Positions 26,609 to 57,761 of a stretch of 64,000 nucleotides of DNA are shown here, piece after piece. Source of the stretch: Escherichia coli (lineage in GTDB: Bacteria; Pseudomonadota; Gammaproteobacteria; Enterobacterales; Enterobacteriaceae). How positions within the stretch are numbered: position 1 is the stretch's first letter; each line of letters starts with the position of its first letter. Under the pieces are notes generated by a model. The model worked only from the letters and a program-made list of their open reading frames with translations, did no database searches and was not told the origin of the DNA. The position numbers and the translations under genes are program-made. The stretch lies in the NCBI RefSeq assembly GCF_965641715.1, contig NZ_OZ282455.1; one strand, written 5' to 3'.

Positions 26609-27391
26609 ATGACTGGCCTCATACCTTCAGCTACTTCTCAGGGCCCAATGGCCGCCCTGCCAGTGACCATCGACTATCCCGCAGCACTGGCCTTGCGGCA
26701 GATGGCGCTCGTTCAGGACGAACTACCGAAATACCTGCTGGCGCCGGAAGTGAGCGCCCTGCTCCACTATGTGCCCGATCTGCACCGTAAGATGCTGCTG
26801 GCCACCCTCTGGAATACGGGCGCCCGCATTAACGAGGCGCTGGCGCTTACTCGAGGGGATTTTTCGCTGGCACCGCCATATCCGTTCGTACAGCTGGCCA
26901 CGCTGAAGCAACGTGCCGAGAAGGCTGCCAGAACAGCAGGACGTCTGCCCGCCGGCAGTCAGGCCCATCGTCTGGTTCCGCTATCAGACAGCCAGTACGT
27001 GAACCAGTTGGAAATGATGGTGGCCACGCTGAAGATTCCGCTCGAGCGACGTAATAAGCGTACCGGCAGAACCGAAAAGGCGCGTATCTGGGAGGTCACT
27101 GACCGGACGGTACGGACCTGGCTGAATGAAGCAGTGGAGAATGCGGCCGCTGACGGGGTGTCATTCTCTGTGCCGGTTACCCCACATACTTTCCGCCATT
27201 CCTACGCGATGCATATGCTGTATGCTGGTATTCCGCTGAAGGTGCTGCAGAGCCTGATGGGGCACAAGTCGATTAGTTCGACAGAGGTGTACACGAAGGT
27301 GTTTGCGCTCGATGTGGCAGCAAGGCACAGGGTGCAGTTTTCGATGCCTGAGTCCGATGCTGTCACAATGCTGAAAAACAGACACGCATAA
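26609..27391 (+). CDS. tyrosine site-specific recombinase (ResD/XerD-like multimer resolvase)
   Basis: C-terminal catalytic region ...HTFRHSYAMHMLYAGIPLKVLQSLMGHKSISSTEVYT... with conserved R, H-x-x-R and Y. Confidence 0.75.
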   Translation: MTGLIPSATSQGPMAALPVTIDYPAALALRQMALVQDELPKYLLAPEVSALLHYVPDLHRKMLLATLWNTGARINEALALTRGDFSLAPPYPFVQLATLKQRAEKAARTAGRLPAGSQAHRLVPLSDSQYVNQLEMMVATLKIPLERRNKRTGRTEKARIWEVTDRTVRTWLNEAVENAAADGVSFSVPVTPHTFRHSYAMHMLYAGIPLKVLQSLMGHKSISSTEVYTKVFALDVAARHRVQFSMPESDAVTMLKNRHA

Positions 27392-27528
27392 GTCACAAAT
27401 CATAATTATGAATTGTGATTTATTCTATAAAAGAAGAGACCACTGCAATATGTGATCTCTTGTATGCAAGGGTGCTTAAACAGTGTGAATTCACAAGTGT
27501 GATTTCATAAGTAATAACTTCTTGATTA

Positions 27529-27804
27529 TTACGTTAGTGTTTTTAAGTATTGCTCAAGGGCTACTCTGACGATGGCACTTACATTTTTTGGATCTTTACC
27601 ATTGCGTTTATTCCTCAATGCCAGATCTTCTATTGTGACAAGCATGCTTTCACCAAGAGAGATTGTCGTCCGACATTGTTTTTCTGGTTCGGGTTTTTCC
27701 GGCGCGCCGTATGGTTTATCCGCAAGGCGCTGAGCCAGAGCCTCTGCTTGTTCTACCGTAACTGCAGCTCTGTTTAATGCTTGCTGGCTGGGTTTCTTCA
27801 CCAT
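27529..27804 (-). CDS. ParG-like small partition/centromere-binding protein (RHH candidate)
   Basis: 91 aa, overlaps 3' end of ParA-family ATPase gene; C-terminal ...VSAIVRVALEQYLKTL. Confidence 0.45.
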   Translation of the reverse strand: MVKKPSQQALNRAAVTVEQAEALAQRLADKPYGAPEKPEPEKQCRTTISLGESMLVTIEDLALRNKRNGKDPKNVSAIVRVALEQYLKTLT

Positions 27805-28442
27805 GGGCCAAATACCTCATTCATTAAATGTTCAATTTCTGCTCTGGCTGCTGTATTGTTCGTTTCTACTACACCGGTGCCGTTGCTCATGCAATCGCGA
27901 TAGACTTTTCTGAAACAAATAACTGAATCCAGGACTTGAATTGTTGGGAATTCTTCAAGATATTCAAGGAATTCTTTTCTCTCATTTCCCCTCAAAACCG
28001 GATTGGTTGTTGCCATACTTTGTAAACAATAAACCTTAAGTTCCGGGTTAAGGTTACGCATTGCGTCTATCTGTTGTTCTAGTTCTGTAAGAGTATCCAG
28101 ATCTGGTTGAGAACACTGTAGTGGCGCAATTATTTGATGTGCGACAACTCCACTCGTTATGAATTCCTTTGAGTTTCTTCCTGCGACATCCACTATTACA
28201 TCATCGAACTTTTCATTCAGAGCCTGTAGTGTTTGTGTCAGGTTATCAAATTTCTCAACAAGGGTTATTGCTGGTAACAGTCCTGCAGCTTCTCGTTCCG
28301 CATGATGTTTTGCGGCTGTTCGTTGTAGATCTCCGTTTAACAGGCAGACTTCCCTTCCTTTATTTGCGAGAGCAATAGCCAGGTTTGATGCAATGGTAGT
28401 TTTCCCTGAACCACCTTTGTTCCCACCAACTACAGTAATCAT
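27798..28442 (-). CDS. ParA/ParF-family partition ATPase (small type Ib)
   Basis: Deviant Walker A MITVVGGNKGGSGKTT; ~214 aa from internal Met. Confidence 0.75.
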   Translation of the reverse strand: MITVVGGNKGGSGKTTIASNLAIALANKGREVCLLNGDLQRTAAKHHAEREAAGLLPAITLVEKFDNLTQTLQALNEKFDDVIVDVAGRNSKEFITSGVVAHQIIAPLQCSQPDLDTLTELEQQIDAMRNLNPELKVYCLQSMATTNPVLRGNERKEFLEYLEEFPTIQVLDSVICFRKVYRDCMSNGTGVVETNNTAARAEIEHLMNEVFGPW

Positions 28443-28670
28443 TGCAACCTCATAAATGTGATGTGTGAAGTATGATGATATTTTGACACGGTAACCTGAT
28501 GTGTCAACATGCATTCATATTTATGAAGTATGAAATATGAAGTGTGTCATGTGATGTAATAAATATTACTTGTGTTTTGTGATTTCATAACTATGATAGT
28601 GCTCAAATTGAGTATTACCTTGCAACCAGAAACAGTGATTTACTCAGATTGAGTATTTAAGGGGCTATAG
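28443..28670. promoter_or_regulatory. divergent par promoter / candidate centromere repeats
   Basis: AT-rich, reiterated TGTGAT and ATGAAGT motifs; GTGATTTCATAA occurs here (28589-28600) and at 27508-27519. Confidence 0.4.
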
Positions 28671-29642
28671 ATGAACGTATACTGCGATGATGGTTCAACA
28701 ACAATCAAGTTGGCATGGAATGACAATGGGAAAATCTGTAAGTCGTTGTCGCAAAACTCATTTCGTCATGGATGGAAGGTTGACGGGTTAGGGATTCGCC
28801 AGACATTTAACTATGAACTGGATGGTAAAAAATACACGTATGATGAAGTTAGCAACCAATCTATTCTTACGACTCATATTGAGTATCAATATACGGATGT
28901 TAACCTGTTAGCTGTGCATCACGCTTTACTGAATAGTGGATTAGCGCCTCAGCCTGTATCATTGACTGTGACTTTGCCTATCAGTGAGTTCTACACGAAA
29001 GAGTGTCAAAAAAATGAACTCAACATTCAGCGTAAAATTGAGAATTTAATGAGGCCGATTCGTCTTAATAAAGGCGATGTTTTCACCATTGAACACGTTG
29101 ATGTGATGCCTGAATCATTGCCAGCTGTGTTTTCTCGTCTGGTCATGGATAAAGTTGGTCAGTTCGAAAAATCGCTGGTAGTTGATATTGGCGGCACTAC
29201 GCTTGATGTTGGTGTTATCGTTGGTCAATTTGACTCTGTAAGTGCCATTCATGGTAATTCTGGCATTGGTGTGTCTTCAGTTACGAAAGCTGCAATGAGT
29301 GCATTGCGCATGGCATCCAGTGATACCAGTTTCCTCGTTGCAGATGAATTGATTAAACGTCGTAATGACCCGGACTTTGTTCGGCAGGTTATAAATGACG
29401 AAACAAAAACTGATCTGGTCCTTAATACCATTGAGGGGGCTATTGCCAGTCTGGGGGAGCAAGTAGTCAATGAGCTCGGTGATTTTCATCATGTGAATCG
29501 TGTTTATGTTGTCGGTGGTGGGGCCCCGTTGATCTATGATTCGATAAAAACGGCATGGCACCATCTTGGGCAAAAAGTAGTGATGATGGAGTCGCCACAG
29601 ACAGCACTGGTTGAAGCTATCGCGGCTTTCAAAGAGGAGTAA
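28671..29642 (+). CDS. parM: actin-like partition ATPase ParM/StbA
   Basis: MNVYCDDGSTTIKLAWNDNG...VDIGGTTLDVGV...VVGGGAPLIY aligns with R1 ParM (MLVFIDDGSTNIKL... IDLGGTTLDI ... VIGGGAELI). Confidence 0.85.
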   Translation: MNVYCDDGSTTIKLAWNDNGKICKSLSQNSFRHGWKVDGLGIRQTFNYELDGKKYTYDEVSNQSILTTHIEYQYTDVNLLAVHHALLNSGLAPQPVSLTVTLPISEFYTKECQKNELNIQRKIENLMRPIRLNKGDVFTIEHVDVMPESLPAVFSRLVMDKVGQFEKSLVVDIGGTTLDVGVIVGQFDSVSAIHGNSGIGVSSVTKAAMSALRMASSDTSFLVADELIKRRNDPDFVRQVINDETKTDLVLNTIEGAIASLGEQVVNELGDFHHVNRVYVVGGGAPLIYDSIKTAWHHLGQKVVMMESPQTALVEAIAAFKEE

Positions 29643-29646
29643 TATT

Positions 29647-30039
29647 GTGGACGATGAACGGAAAAGGAAAAAATTCACACTTTATCTGCATCCGGAAAAA
29701 GCTGCAGACTCTCAAACTTTGGAAGCGATAGAGTCCGTTCCGCGTTCTGAGCGTGGTGAGCTGTTCCGGAATGCATTTATTTCTGGAATGGCGTTACACC
29801 AACTTGATCCTCGCCTGCCTGTATTGCTGACTGCCATTTTGAGCGAGGAGTTTTCAGCAGATCAGGTTGTAACCTTACTCAGTCAGACGACAGGATGGAA
29901 GCCTTCTCAGGCCGATATCAGAGCTGTGTTGACTGAACTCGGTGCTTTGCAATCTGCTGAAAAAATGCCTCCTTCTGCTACTGATTCGGTGCAGGAGGCA
30001 ATGAATGATGTGCGCCTTAAAATGCAAAAATTATTCTGA
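29647..30039 (+). CDS. parR: ParR/StbB adaptor protein
   Basis: GTG start after RBS GAGGAG; ...SVPRSERGELFRNAFISGMALHQLDPRLPVL... resembles R1 ParR. Confidence 0.7.
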   Translation: MDDERKRKKFTLYLHPEKAADSQTLEAIESVPRSERGELFRNAFISGMALHQLDPRLPVLLTAILSEEFSADQVVTLLSQTTGWKPSQADIRAVLTELGALQSAEKMPPSATDSVQEAMNDVRLKMQKLF

Positions 30040-30043
30040 TATA

Positions 30044-31315
30044 TCAGAATGAAGCAATGGGGATCTCAGTCCATTGTGTTGTATACGAAGGCGAGAGCAT
30101 TTCCCGTTTCATTTGCCATTCAGGGGCGGTTCCTCGCCCCGCAAACCACACTTTCCCTTTTCCAGACTGGTTCAGTTCATCGAGTGTTTTCATTAACTTT
30201 TCGCTGTTTTTACGGGGCTGGATCTCATCAAATAATCCCGGCTGCGCTATACCCGATGGTGTGAAATCAGCCAGCATGACTCCTGCCTTCATATAGCGGT
30301 ACCCTTCACGCCAGACATGGTTTAACGCTCTGCATGCTGCGGCAATAATGTCCCGGCTGTCCTGTGTGGGTAATGGAAGCTTTTCCACAGCGGCATTGCT
30401 GTAACAGGGTTCTTTTACTGCAAAGGGGGATGTCCGTACAAATGTCGTCACCTGCCGGCAATACTGACGCTCCCCACGTAGTTTCTCTGCGGCCCGCTCT
30501 GCATACTGAACAACAGCCTGGTGCATGGCATCTTTGTCTGTGATTCGTTCACCAAAACTGCGACTACAGACAATCTGCTGTTTTGCCGGTGGTGCTTCTT
30601 CCAGGGATATGCAGGACTCGCCGTTGAGTTCGCGTACCGTACGCTCAAGAATGACGCTGAAGTTTTTCCGGATGAATGCCGTGTTAGCCTGCGCCAGCTG
30701 CAGTGCTGTGTTAATACCCAGCGCATTCAGCTTTTCCGTCAGTCTGCGTCCTACTCCCCAGACCTCACCAACTGGCTGCAGCCCCAGTAGCTTCAAGATC
30801 CGATTACGGTTTTCTGCCGTCAGCGCGACCACACCGGAAAACTGTGGCCATTGCTTTGTTGCCCACTGTGCACTTTTAGCCAGCGTTTTTGTAGGCGCAA
30901 TGCCCACCCCCATGGTGAGTCCTGTCCAGCTTTTTACCTGTTCCCTGAGCTGATGACCAAAAAACTCCGGAGAGATGCAATGATTTATCCCCCGCAAATC
31001 AATGAACATTTCATCAATTGAGTAGGGCTCAACTGCGGGAGAAAGCGACTCCAGAACAGCCATAACCCGTTGGCTCATGCTGTGGTACAGCGCATAATTG
31101 CTGGAAAATACATGTATTTTCTTCTCCAGGCGCATTTGTCTCACCTGAAACCAGGGCTGCCCCATTCTGATGCCAAGGGCTTTTGCCTCCGGGCTGCGCG
31201 CGATCACACAGCCATCGTTATTGCTGAGTACGATGACCGGTTCGTTGCGAAGGTCCGGGCGGAAAACTTTTTCACATGAGGCGTAGAAACTGTTGATATC
31301 AGCCAGTGCAAACAT
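30044..31315 (-). CDS. umuC: error-prone DNA polymerase V catalytic subunit (UmuC/ImpB/MucB family, Y-family polymerase)
   Basis: 423 aa, MFALADINSFYASCEKVFRPDL... conserved Y-family N-terminus. Confidence 0.9.
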   Translation of the reverse strand: MFALADINSFYASCEKVFRPDLRNEPVIVLSNNDGCVIARSPEAKALGIRMGQPWFQVRQMRLEKKIHVFSSNYALYHSMSQRVMAVLESLSPAVEPYSIDEMFIDLRGINHCISPEFFGHQLREQVKSWTGLTMGVGIAPTKTLAKSAQWATKQWPQFSGVVALTAENRNRILKLLGLQPVGEVWGVGRRLTEKLNALGINTALQLAQANTAFIRKNFSVILERTVRELNGESCISLEEAPPAKQQIVCSRSFGERITDKDAMHQAVVQYAERAAEKLRGERQYCRQVTTFVRTSPFAVKEPCYSNAAVEKLPLPTQDSRDIIAAACRALNHVWREGYRYMKAGVMLADFTPSGIAQPGLFDEIQPRKNSEKLMKTLDELNQSGKGKVWFAGRGTAPEWQMKREMLSPSYTTQWTEIPIASF

Positions 31316-31752
31316 CAGCGTAACTCCCGCGTCCTGTGTATCACGTGAGTGACAACACCAAAAATACAGATGTTTTCCGGATACAGTGTGCGGAACTCCG
31401 GGCTGTCTGAAACCGGCTCCAGTGCCGGGCGTGGGCGCAACAGCAGTCGTTTGACGGTGAACTCACCGTCGATCTCAGCGATAACGATGTCCCCGTGTTG
31501 TGGTTTTTCGGCCCTGTCCACTACCAGCAGATCACCATTCTGCACGCCAGCCTGGTTCATCGATTCACCGCTGGCGCGCAGAAAGAAGGTGGCTGCAGGT
31601 CTGCTGATGCAATAGCTGTTCAGATCCAGTTCCTGCTCAGCATAATCAGTGGCAGGCGAAGGAAAACCGGCCTGGCAACGATCGGCAAACAACGGTCGCA
31701 CGTAACTGTCATCGCCTGAAGGGTCAGCCGGACGGTGATAAACGGTACTCAT
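31315..31752 (-). CDS. umuD: UmuD/ImpA/MucA family protein (LexA-like self-cleaving)
   Basis: 145 aa with S24 peptidase signature ...RASGESMNQAGVQNGDLLVVD...; coupled to umuC. Confidence 0.9.
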   Translation of the reverse strand: MSTVYHRPADPSGDDSYVRPLFADRCQAGFPSPATDYAEQELDLNSYCISRPAATFFLRASGESMNQAGVQNGDLLVVDRAEKPQHGDIVIAEIDGEFTVKRLLLRPRPALEPVSDSPEFRTLYPENICIFGVVTHVIHRTRELR

Positions 31753-31997
31753 GCTGCAGGCAGCCAGCTGTCGTCCTGCCAGATTTCTTCCAGCAGAGAC
31801 AGGATACGTTCTTTATCCTTGTCGTTGCGGGCTCCTGTGACAGATACAGACGGGGCGCTGCCCTGGTCTATACGCAGCCAGATTTCCGGGTAGTGTGGTT
31901 TCAGACGTTGTTCGATTTCATTCTGTAGCGCCTGAAGTGTGCCTGATTTGAGGTTTTTTGTGCTCTGGCGGTCGAAAAGAATTTCAATGCGGATCAT
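31749..31997 (-). CDS. dinI: DinI-like protein (ImpC-like)
   Basis: 82 aa from MIRIEILFDRQSTKNL...; first gene of dinI-umuD-umuC-like operon as in IncI1 impCAB. Confidence 0.75.
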   Translation of the reverse strand: MIRIEILFDRQSTKNLKSGTLQALQNEIEQRLKPHYPEIWLRIDQGSAPSVSVTGARNDKDKERILSLLEEIWQDDSWLPAA

Positions 31998-32020
31998 GTT
32001 CTCATCTCCCTTTTCTATTG

Positions 32021-32036
32021 CTGTATGCATATACAG
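32021..32036. promoter_or_regulatory. LexA (SOS) box upstream of dinI/umuDC-like operon
   Basis: CTGTATGCATATACAG = CTGT-N8-ACAG palindrome, 24 bp upstream of ATG at 31997. Confidence 0.8.
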
Positions 32037-32390
32037 TATTCTAATAACTGAATCCACACACAGTCAAATGTCATTATTGTGACTAAAAAACGCTCAATTC
32101 TCTGAGCGTGTGGCTGTATGCCTGCTGTGGACTGCTGTGTCCAGCTTATCCACAGCATTTTGCGCACGGTTCTGTGGACAAAATACCTGGTTACCCAGGC
32201 CGTGCCGGCACGTTAACCGGGCTGCATCCGATGCAAGTGTGTCGCTGTCGCCGGCCTCCTCACCCGGTCACGTTTCGTCGTTCCTCCTCCACGCGCTGCG
32301 GCTTCGGGGCCGCACCTGCATTCGTATGCGGTCGCCCGGTTACAGGTGCGGCACGGCCTGATGGAGGCCGCATGTGAGAGGAGAATTCCC

Positions 32391-56496: not shown

Positions 56497-56726
56497 GACA
56501 AAGTCTCCATTTCTGGAATTTAAATCAAACGGAAAGGTTAAAAATTTATTTGCAGGCGATAAGAGCTAACCAGAGGAATTAGCCGTGCGATAAAAGGATT
56601 GTTGCAGATACGAAAGTCGTTAGAATAGCTGCGGGCGCTTGAGGCTGTATGCCGAAAGCGTTTTGTGGACGGTATACAGCAGAAAGCCCCTGGAGATTTT
56701 TTTATCAATCAACCAAGGGCTCTACT

Positions 56727-56933
56727 GTAATGCCTAGACAACATTATAGTAGCCCGATAACCGCCGTAAGGCAATGGAGGGGCTATGATGCCACAGCGAA
56801 CGTTTTTAATGATGTTAATCGTCATCTGTGTGACGATTCTGTGTTTTGTCTGGATGGTGAGGGATTCGCTTTGCGTACTCCGGCTCCAGCAGGGAAACAC
56901 AGTGCTTGTGGCAACGTTAGCCTACGAAGTTAA
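56727..56933 (+). CDS. pndC: PndC (Mok-like) overlapping reading frame of hok-type toxin locus
   Basis: ORF overlapping pndA in another frame, as for mok/hok. Confidence 0.4.
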   Translation, partial: VMPRQHYSSPITAVRQWRGYDATANVFNDVNRHLCDDSVFCLDGEGFALRTPAPAGKHSACGNVSLRS

Positions 56934-57263: not shown

Positions 57264-57422
57264 CGGATTTTCTCTCTGTATTTATGGGTAGTTATCGAAC
57301 TGAATGTGCCAGTTTTTTCAGGAGACGGCAAAGTTGAGATGATTGGTTCTGATTCAGAGCATGAGTTTCCTCGGTGTGACGGGCATGTCGGGCGGATTTT
57401 GAGAAACAACAGATGTAAAAAA

Positions 57423-57448
57423 ACCGACTGGTGAGGTCGGTTTTTTTA
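57423..57448. terminator. bidirectional rho-independent terminator
   Basis: AAAAAA-CCGAC-TGGTGAG-GTCGG-TTTTTTT hairpin flanked by A- and T-tracts. Confidence 0.65.
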
Positions 57449-57761
57449 CTGTTCCGTTACAGAGTGGGTGGCCCTGACCGGAGGAAATCTCTTTTCAACT
57501 AACGTTCTTATAATAGCGAGCTGTTCATTTGATAGCAACCATCCTTATAATCCGCAGGTTAGCTCTGTCTGGCGACACTTCTGCCGTGATATCCATCGGG
57601 ACTATGGATGCAAGATTTTAAGTCCTGGCTGAACAAACAGGTGGTGCTGTGTTCAGTGCTCTGGCAGGAGGAAGTCTCTTTTCAACTAACACTGAAAGTG
57701 CCGTTGTGACAGGCAATGTAAGAGTAAGCAACGGTGATTTCCTCCAGTGATGGAGAAGCGG

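Follow-up and report, generated by a model that had tools for sequence, protein, structure and literature searches.

Positions 27392–30039 of the window, by which we mean the whole 64,000-nt stretch of Escherichia coli contig NZ_OZ282455.1 analysed here, hold two plasmid partition operons arranged back to back. The operon on the plus strand, par1, encodes an actin-like ATPase, ParM, and its adaptor, ParR; that on the minus strand, par2, encodes ParA, a small ATPase of the Walker type, together with a predicted ribbon-helix-helix (RHH) protein, ParB. Judging from sequence comparisons, the probability is about 0.93 that the locus is a copy of the pB171-type double par locus, comprising par1 (parMR) and par2 (parAB). 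Its carrier here is an IncI/K-type conjugative plasmid backbone. An earlier note on this DNA had proposed type Ib and type II partition cassettes in this arrangement. The open reading frames (ORFs), their strands and their Pfam matches bore out that proposal, and the gene coordinates given in the note, 28442–27529 on the minus strand and 28671–30039 on the plus strand, agree exactly with the ORF list. The four genes are as follows.

27529–27804, minus strand: parB (par2), encoding a 91-residue protein, predicted to be an RHH centromere-binding protein and repressor from its Pfam RHH_1 match and its counterpart in plasmid CP091396.1
27798–28442, minus strand: parA (par2), encoding a 214-residue Walker-type, MinD/ParA-like ATPase of type Ib
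28671–29642, plus strand: parM (par1), encoding a 323-residue actin-like ATPase of type II
29647–30039, plus strand: parR (par1), encoding a 130-residue centromere-binding adaptor, with a GTG start

ParM matched the Pfam families StbA_N (E = 1.6e-64) and ParM C-terminal domain (E = 4.3e-44). Compared with the structures of R1 ParM, its residues 2–295 aligned to residues 2–293 (E = 2.8e-76). The ribosome-binding site of parM, AAGGGG, lies at 28659–28664. ParR matched the Pfam family Plasmid_stab_B (E = 1.1e-29) and PDB entry 2JD3. Its start is either GTG 29647, which gives 130 residues, the length of the crystallised protein, or TTG 29611, which gives an ORF of 142 residues; public records differ on this point.

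ParA matched the Pfam families MipZ, AAA_31, CbiA and ParA, and its match to the NCBIfam model ParA_partition (E = 1e-33) fell below that model's cut-off. A 238-residue form starting at ATG 28514 was considered and rejected: this start lies upstream of the predicted parAB promoter, P2, the Walker A motif, MITVVGGNKGGSGKTT, starts at residue 7 of the 214-residue form, and a ribosome-binding site, GAGG, stands 4 nt upstream of ATG 28442.

The RHH_1 match of ParB spans residues 45–88 and scored 21.7 bits against a Pfam cut-off of 20.5. The 90% cluster of this protein contains one named 'Orf70 protein'. An AlphaFold model based on a 5-sequence alignment (mean predicted local distance difference test, pLDDT, of 69) has helices at residues 17–29, 52–67 and 75–90, with a low-confidence linker after the first. 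The segment RTTISL precedes helix 52–67 and is invariant across the relatives of ParB. It is the putative DNA-reading strand, in keeping with the conserved TRTGA core of the repeats described below.

Repeats of parC1 and parC2 and the predicted promoters

The earlier note placed the divergence of the two operons in a 228-bp AT-rich region. This is the segment 28443–28670, with 32.5% GC as compared with 52.1% in the window; we refer to it as parC1, and to the non-coding region 3' of parB as parC2. Their features are listed below, with the strand of a repeat unit in brackets after its first position.

28443–28670: parC1, 228 bp, the common region with both promoters, candidate ParB heptads and ParR repeats
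28449–28476: heptad block 1, candidate P2 operator, with units at 28449(-), 28456(+), 28463(+) and 28470(+), flanked by the P2 -10 element and the ribosome-binding site of parA
28480–28507, minus strand: P2, predicted parAB promoter (TTGACA, 16 nt, CAAAAT, with a TG extended -10 element; 10/12 matches in the promoter scan)
28514–28597: heptad block 2, with units at 28514(-), 28521, 28528, 28535, 28549, 28577(+) and 28584(-) and a near-match at 28591, in twelve 7-bp slots of one register
28570–28597, plus strand: P1, inferred parMR promoter (TTGTGT at 28570, 16 nt, TATGAT at 28592), from position and conservation
28602–28613, plus strand: ParR repeat R1, CTCAAATTGAGT, a member of the direct-repeat family, starting 4 nt after the P1 -10 element
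28643–28654, plus strand: ParR repeat R2, CTCAGATTGAGT, 41 bp after the first and just upstream of the parM ribosome-binding site
27392–27528: parC2, candidate second par2 centromere 3' of parB, 137 bp, 30.7% GC, 8 heptads
27392–27419: parC2 distal heptad block, a palindrome of four contiguous units at 27392(-), a near-match, 27399(-), 27406(+) and 27413(+)
27434–27461, minus strand: terminator-like hairpin of parAB, with a 10-bp stem followed by CTTTTAT, from the terminator scan
27483–27510: parC2 proximal heptad block, four contiguous units at 27483(+), 27490(-), 27497(+) and 27504(-), including a copy of GTGATTTCATAA at 27499–27510
27515–27527, minus strand: candidate site for integration host factor (IHF), AATCAAGAAGTTA, a perfect consensus in the interval from the parB stop codon to the first parC2 heptad

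Of these features, P1, the terminator-like hairpin and the IHF site are inferences made in this analysis.

The repeats that the earlier note described as TGTGAT and ATGAAGT do recur, in related form, between the operons and 3' of parB. They are not two motifs: the TGA triplets of parC1 are spaced 7, 14 or 28 bp apart, so that TGTGAT and ATGAAGT both reflect one degenerate 7-bp unit, seen in a shifted frame or in a variant form. We described this unit as DTRTGAD on either strand and evaluated its frequency against 2000 first-order Markov simulations per region. Nineteen of the 135 matches in the window fall within the 365 bp of the two non-coding regions, 11 in parC1 and 8 in parC2. The simulations predicted 2.8 and 1.3, respectively, and none of the 2000 reached either observed count. 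All 12 pairs of heptads in the 64 kb whose members lie exactly 7 bp apart are within parC1 or parC2. TGTGAT by itself is not enriched across the window (27 found, 39 expected); six of the 27, all on the plus strand, lie in the same 365 bp. The heptad is the candidate binding site of ParB. The detailed repeat map that the earlier note had called for thus consists of 11 heptads in parC1 and 8 in parC2, in 7-bp register, together with a pair of CTCAnnnTGAGT repeats that is unrelated to the heptads and is assigned to ParR.

The 12-mer GTGATTTCATAA that the note reported for both regions does occur there, and exactly twice in the window, at 27499–27510 and 28579–28590; the positions reported for it, 27508–27519 and 28589–28600, are 9–10 nt too high. 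With up to one mismatch allowed, shuffled sequences contained a mean of 0.29 copies, and 3 of 100 shuffles reached 2.

Given the position of P2, heptad block 1 occupies a classical operator position, with the P2 -10 element on one side and the ribosome-binding site of parA on the other. This block, one inverted and three direct units, occurs at the same place in four relatives and is the best-conserved part of the intergenic alignment. Heptad block 2 includes the parC1 copy of GTGATTTCATAA and overlies P1, with the units at 28577, 28584 and 28591 covering its spacer and -10 element. The TATGAT of P1 is invariant. The window, CP091396.1 and an Enterobacter relative share one and the same ACTTGTGTTTT block, and relatives from Salmonella and Providencia have a near-identical one. 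The heptads over P1 would provide a structural basis for repression of parMR by ParB, and heptads over both promoters are consistent with the cross-talk published for pB171.

In parC2, the proximal and distal heptad blocks share one 7-bp register and are 84 bp, or 12 heptads, apart. An isolated heptad lies between them at 27450(+). Folding of the minus-strand RNA of 27420–27530 returned the same 10-pair hairpin as the terminator scan (z = -2.5). The IHF consensus WATCAANNNNTTR has two zero-mismatch matches in the 64 kb, one of which is that at 27515–27527.

TGTGA motifs were also considered as half-sites of CRP and rejected by inspection: the spacing is wrong (TGTGA-N2-TCACA at 27484–27495), and RHH heptads account better for the 7-bp phasing and the conservation. 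The only other site of the window with more than three heptad matches, at 19597–19681, has four heptad-like matches in 85 bp (TTGTGAT, ATATGAT twice and ATGTGAT) that are out of 7-bp register; it is probably due to chance.

Relation to the pB171 locus and to diverged relatives

ParR was identical, end to end, at 125 of 130 positions (96%) to PDB entry 2JD3, named 'StbB protein', which is the ParR of pB171 (PMC3074162). A tblastn search with the 2JD3 sequence yielded 63 plasmids matching at 99% or more; the ParR of CP091396.1 (IncFIB, 68 kb) agreed with it at 129 of 130 positions. We therefore used CP091396.1, together with the 2JD3 sequence, as a proxy for pB171. The gene order of this plasmid is ccdA-ccdB-integrase-parB-parA-parM-parR, and its DNA is 98.9% identical to window positions 27392–30039 over 2647 bp with no gaps. 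The encoded proteins are identical at 91/91 (ParB), 213/214 (ParA, 99.5%), 321/323 (ParM) and 125/130 (ParR) positions. In the parC1 intergenic region, 4 of the 256 positions aligned are different, and parC2 is the same save for a few substitutions. The match of ParR to 2JD3 and the 98.9% identity to CP091396.1 are the reasons for identifying the locus with the double par locus of pB171.

The components of a pB171-type locus are present in the window: a type II pair, actin-like ParM followed by StbB-type ParR; a divergent type Ib pair, in which a small Walker ParA precedes an RHH ParB of ~90 residues; a common parC1 with two unrelated sets of repeats, seen at the sequence level only (11 heptads and two CTCAnnnTGAGT); and a second cis site, parC2, downstream of parB with ParB-type repeats (8 heptads in 137 bp, and a 12-mer in common with parC1). 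The likeness to pB171 thus extends to the four genes, their divergent arrangement, a common intergenic region of ~200–230 bp, the second non-coding region 3' of parB and the two ParR repeats upstream of parM. The differences amount to five ParR residues and ~1% of nucleotides. The carriers also differ: pB171 is an IncFIB virulence plasmid, whereas the window represents an IncI-gamma/K-type conjugative backbone with an adjoining impCAB/umuDC-like operon.

The 'double par locus' was first described on pB171, and regulatory cross-talk has been published for it (Ebersbach and Gerdes 2001; Ringgaard et al. 2007). In later work from the pB171 laboratory, par2 constructs were written parC1-parA-parB-parC2, and both parC sites were treated as parts of the functional par2 locus (PMC4270457). 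The ParB of pB171 is an RHH protein with two parC sites (PMC2441792). The literature describes two 10-bp ParR repeats upstream of parM, which the CTCAnnnTGAGT pair of the window fits, and repeat arrays on both sides of the par2 operon, upstream and downstream, which we counted in favour of the identification. The suggestion of the earlier note that the two systems probably have common or cross-talking centromere and operator sites was well founded: it corresponds to the published parC1, parC2 and cross-talk of pB171.

The locus is, accordingly, already known, and represents no departure from the published system. Its value as a discovery is small: the pB171 locus has served as a model system since 2001, and experiments showed a common site with cross-talk in 2007. 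The parC1 of pB171 is reportedly ~200 bp long and common to both operons, with ParR and ParB said to bind unrelated sets of direct repeats within it. ParB reportedly represses the non-cognate operon as well, and IHF is said to contribute to partition by par2.

Several points weigh against the identification or parts of it. The link to pB171 goes through the 2JD3 sequence and a proxy plasmid rather than the pB171 record itself (AB024946 / NC_002142). A Foldseek search of the ParB model against the PDB gave no hit at E <= 0.001, with ParG (1p94) at E = 2.9; the RHH assignment of ParB rests on Pfam and the literature, since a monomeric RHH chain with a disordered tail makes a poor Foldseek query. 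P1 is absent from the promoter-scan list and has a weak -35 element (3/6 matches). The ParB repeats published for pB171 are reportedly shorter (6 bp) and more numerous than the heptads counted here, and the heptad map may differ from the published numbering. Finally, the segment 27392–27464 is also found in plasmids without par2, and need not all be centromere.

The locus is widely distributed. When the 2.8-kb locus was used as query, 2511 PLSDB records matched, and in 982 of these the match covered at least 80% of the query. The par2 half alone matched 1686 records, 1036 of them over at least 80%. The hosts were mostly Escherichia, Salmonella, Klebsiella and Shigella. Among the records, those that matched best were IncI-gamma/K-type conjugative plasmids with the same neighbours as in the window, an integrase on one side and the impCAB/umuDC-like operon on the other. 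The genes are annotated in the matching records as 'division plane positioning ATPase MipZ', 'CopG family transcriptional regulator' or 'hypothetical protein'. The model locus is thus present, essentially unchanged, on ~1,000 sequenced plasmids, mostly under labels of this kind only.

Diverged copies were found with blastn in plasmids of Enterobacter cloacae, Salmonella Karamoja and Providencia rettgeri. Their proteins are 74–86% (ParA), 73–86% (ParB), 69–80% (ParM) and 49–58% (ParR) identical to those of the window, and the divergent four-gene unit is kept in all three. This conservation of the whole unit across genera suggests that the pairing of par1 and par2 is itself under selection. ParR has drifted much further than ParM, ParA and ParB among the relatives, yet the CTCAnnnTGAGT repeats and their 40–41 bp spacing were kept: this is the spacing in the window, CP091396.1, Enterobacter and Salmonella, and Providencia has three copies, 40 and 33 bp apart.

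The relatives also share the order of elements in parC1: a heptad block of one inverted and three direct units by the parA ribosome-binding site, direct heptads in the middle of the region (four perfect GTATGAA units in Salmonella), ACTTGTGTTTT...TATGAT and the ParR-type repeats. Their parC2 regions contain 3–11 heptads, with ~10 GTATGAA units in Salmonella and eight inverted TTGTGAA units in Providencia; these regions are not alignable, so they were compared by motif counts only. In parC1 and parC2 alike, the heptad arrays of the relatives are cleaner than those of the window. From this comparison, the candidate ParB site emerges cleanly as a 7-bp unit that is repeated without spacers, both direct and inverted, and is organised like the heptads of the omega protein.

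Mechanism and alternative explanations

We observed the gene identities, the near-identity to the pB171 system, the position, register and statistics of the repeats and the conservation of the layout in diverged relatives. The assignment of proteins to repeat classes, centromere function, oscillation of ParA and cross-repression are taken from the pB171 literature. On this basis, in par1, ParR would bind the two CTCAnnnTGAGT repeats just upstream of parM, and ParM would polymerise between ParR-bound plasmid copies and push them apart. In par2, dimers of the 91-residue ParB would coat the DTRTGAD arrays of parC1 and parC2, and the resulting complexes would stimulate and follow nucleoid-bound ParA, such that plasmids become evenly spaced over the nucleoid. 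Each operon may also regulate itself: parAB would be shut off through the four heptads that separate the P2 -10 element from the parA start, and parMR through the ParR repeats just 3' of the P1 -10 element. The heptads over P1 would let ParB repress parMR too, corresponding to the published 'regulatory cross-talk'.

The extent of parC2 is where an alternative has most to be said for it. Upstream of the locus lies the gene of a neighbour that does not belong to the par machinery.

26609–27391, plus strand: ResD-like tyrosine recombinase of 260 residues (Pfam Phage_integrase, E = 1.5e-18)

As the earlier note had recognised, this protein is ResD-like: it is identical at 223 of 254 positions (88%) to the integrase whose gene comes directly after ccdB in plasmid F. 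Under the alternative, only 27465–27528, with four heptads and the IHF site, belongs to par2; 27392–27464 would be part of the recombinase module, comprising a core site (inverted arms of ~11 bp around ATAATTAT) and a terminator, in which the copies of TGTGAT are coincidental. The 73 bp in question, palindrome and hairpin included, recur at 92–100% identity beside the integrase in IncF colicin-M plasmids without parAB, and the homology ends sharply at 27464/27465. The palindrome (18-nt arms, 89% complementary, no spacer) overlaps the stop codon of the recombinase, and the TGTGAT at 27451 lies within the hairpin stem, 2 nt out of heptad register. The occurrence of the distal block in plasmids without par2 renders its assignment to ParB less certain.

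On the other side, plasmid F, with its 88%-identical recombinase, has a completely different 3' flank from which the segment is absent, which indicates that the resD module does not intrinsically include or require 27392–27464. The four units of the palindrome keep the register of the proximal block. The G/A substitutions between the window and CP091396.1 in the distal block (TGTGA <-> TATGA) retain the TRTGA core and the heptad consensus. Moreover, only on the parAB strand does the hairpin have a T-run, and the colicin-M plasmids could carry the remnant of a deleted par2. We consider assignment of the segment to the recombinase unlikely, if worth keeping in mind. We read 27392–27464 instead as distal parC2 that has remained in plasmids that lost par2; in those plasmids, it looks like a remnant or recombination junction.

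According to a second alternative, the locus is a passenger with a single working system, par1 acting as a regulatory partner only or par2 being cross-repressed, and the plasmid owes its stability to hok/sok-type killing and conjugation. Deletion of a different par locus from pESBL hardly lowered its stability, toxin-antitoxin and re-transfer having compensated (PMC7602700). A sok RNA is encoded in the window, and the published cross-talk implies that one system can dampen the other. Set against this, the four ORFs are intact and 96–100% identical to pB171-type proteins, both repeat classes and both promoters are intact, and the whole four-gene unit is conserved in other genera down to protein identities of ~50–75%, which points to selection on both halves. 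A passenger role is therefore improbable, and we favour two working partition systems.

Two further proposals concern 27392–27464 and are more speculative still. The segment might be an orphan ParB-binding site, such that the colicin-M plasmids use, or are destabilised by, the ParB of a co-resident par2; or pairing by ParB might be coupled there to dimer resolution of the ResD type. Either would be a considerable surprise.

That the repeats are autoregulatory promoter operators only, or AT-rich low-complexity sequence, and not centromeres is very hard to credit: the regions are AT-rich and the heptads and ParR repeats overlap predicted promoters, but composition-matched simulations never reach the heptad counts, no other part of the 64 kb has strict 7-bp phasing, the array 3' of parB has no promoter to regulate and recurs in relatives as 7–8 near-perfect tandem heptads, and both parC1 and parC2 of pB171 are treated as parts of a functional par2 (PMC4270457).

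Other partition systems and the plasmid neighbourhood

The par1 operon resembles parMRC of plasmid R1 in that ParM is homologous over nearly its full length, the adaptor gene lies 3' of parM and, upstream of parM, promoter and centromere overlap. It differs in the centromere itself. Going by the title of the reference, R1 parC has ten direct repeats flanking the promoter, whereas parC1 has two ParR repeats 41 bp apart. The R1-type arrangement of two blocks of five 11-bp repeats around the promoter was not found in the window, where the two ParR-type repeats lie 3' of the inferred -10 element. The ParR of the window also differs from that of R1 in belonging to the Plasmid_stab_B (StbB) family and in having an extra C-terminal helical domain.

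The par2 operon had been called ParF/ParG-like in the earlier note. As a class, this was correct: as in ParF-ParG-parH of TP228, a small Walker ATPase lacking an N-terminal DNA-binding domain is paired with a small RHH adaptor and repressor with an N-terminal tail. As a family assignment, it did not hold. The match of ParA to ParF is weak (E = 3e-7). A phmmer search of the 91-residue protein against PDB sequences did not return ParG at E <= 1, and Pfam, at E <= 0.01, returned the generic RHH_1 and no ParG family. The sites differ as well: in TP228, parH comprises tetramer boxes separated by AT-rich spacers, in one array that lies upstream (PMC3130281), whereas the units of the window are unspaced 7-bp repeats at two sites, upstream and downstream. 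Judged by its proteins and repeats, the locus would work like type Ib systems such as ParFG of TP228 and delta/omega of pSM19035, and is not a member of the ParF/ParG family.

The repeats have a parallel in delta/omega. There, an RHH adaptor binds contiguous, unspaced heptads, direct and inverted, that overlap promoters at several sites per plasmid. Read on the other strand, the omega heptad 5'-WATCACW-3' becomes WGTGATW, a sequence very similar to the TGTGAT-type units of the window. The systems differ in that they have no similarity detectable with phmmer, the host phylum of pSM19035 is Firmicutes and no type II system is linked to delta/omega. In addition, omega regulates copy number and a toxin-antitoxin system, and pB171 ParB, unlike omega, pairs centromere-carrying DNA fragments without ParA.

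The par locus of pESBL, an IncI plasmid, is also of type Ib with repeat arrays on both sides of parAB; it differs in having an octamer repeat, GATAACAA, and no adjoining parMR has been described for it. This octamer was rejected as a relevant repeat of the window, since only three scattered exact copies occur in the 64 kb, with no cluster even when one mismatch was allowed. It follows that a third par locus of the pESBL type is absent or lies outside the 64 kb.

Immediately beyond parR, on the minus strand at 30044–32057, lie a umuC-like gene (423 residues), a umuD-like gene (145 residues) and a third gene annotated as DinI-like in a matching plasmid; the three constitute an SOS-mutagenesis operon. 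It ends 4 nt after the parR stop codon, and a umuDC-type operon also adjoins parR in the Enterobacter and Providencia relatives. On the other flank, ccdAB was not found upstream of the recombinase in the window, in contrast to the ccdA-ccdB-integrase order of CP091396.1. The segment 25513–26541, upstream of the integrase, instead contains two ORFs of 116 and 202 residues, annotated 'hypothetical protein' in the matching plasmids. Still further upstream, a matching plasmid encodes an abortive-infection family protein and a DUF2971 protein. Elsewhere in the window, two RNAs scored above their Rfam gathering scores: a sok antitoxin RNA at 56633–56790 on the plus strand (134 bits), which indicates a post-segregational killing locus of the hok/sok type, and an antisense RNA of the AgrB family at 57415–57502 on the minus strand (55 bits).

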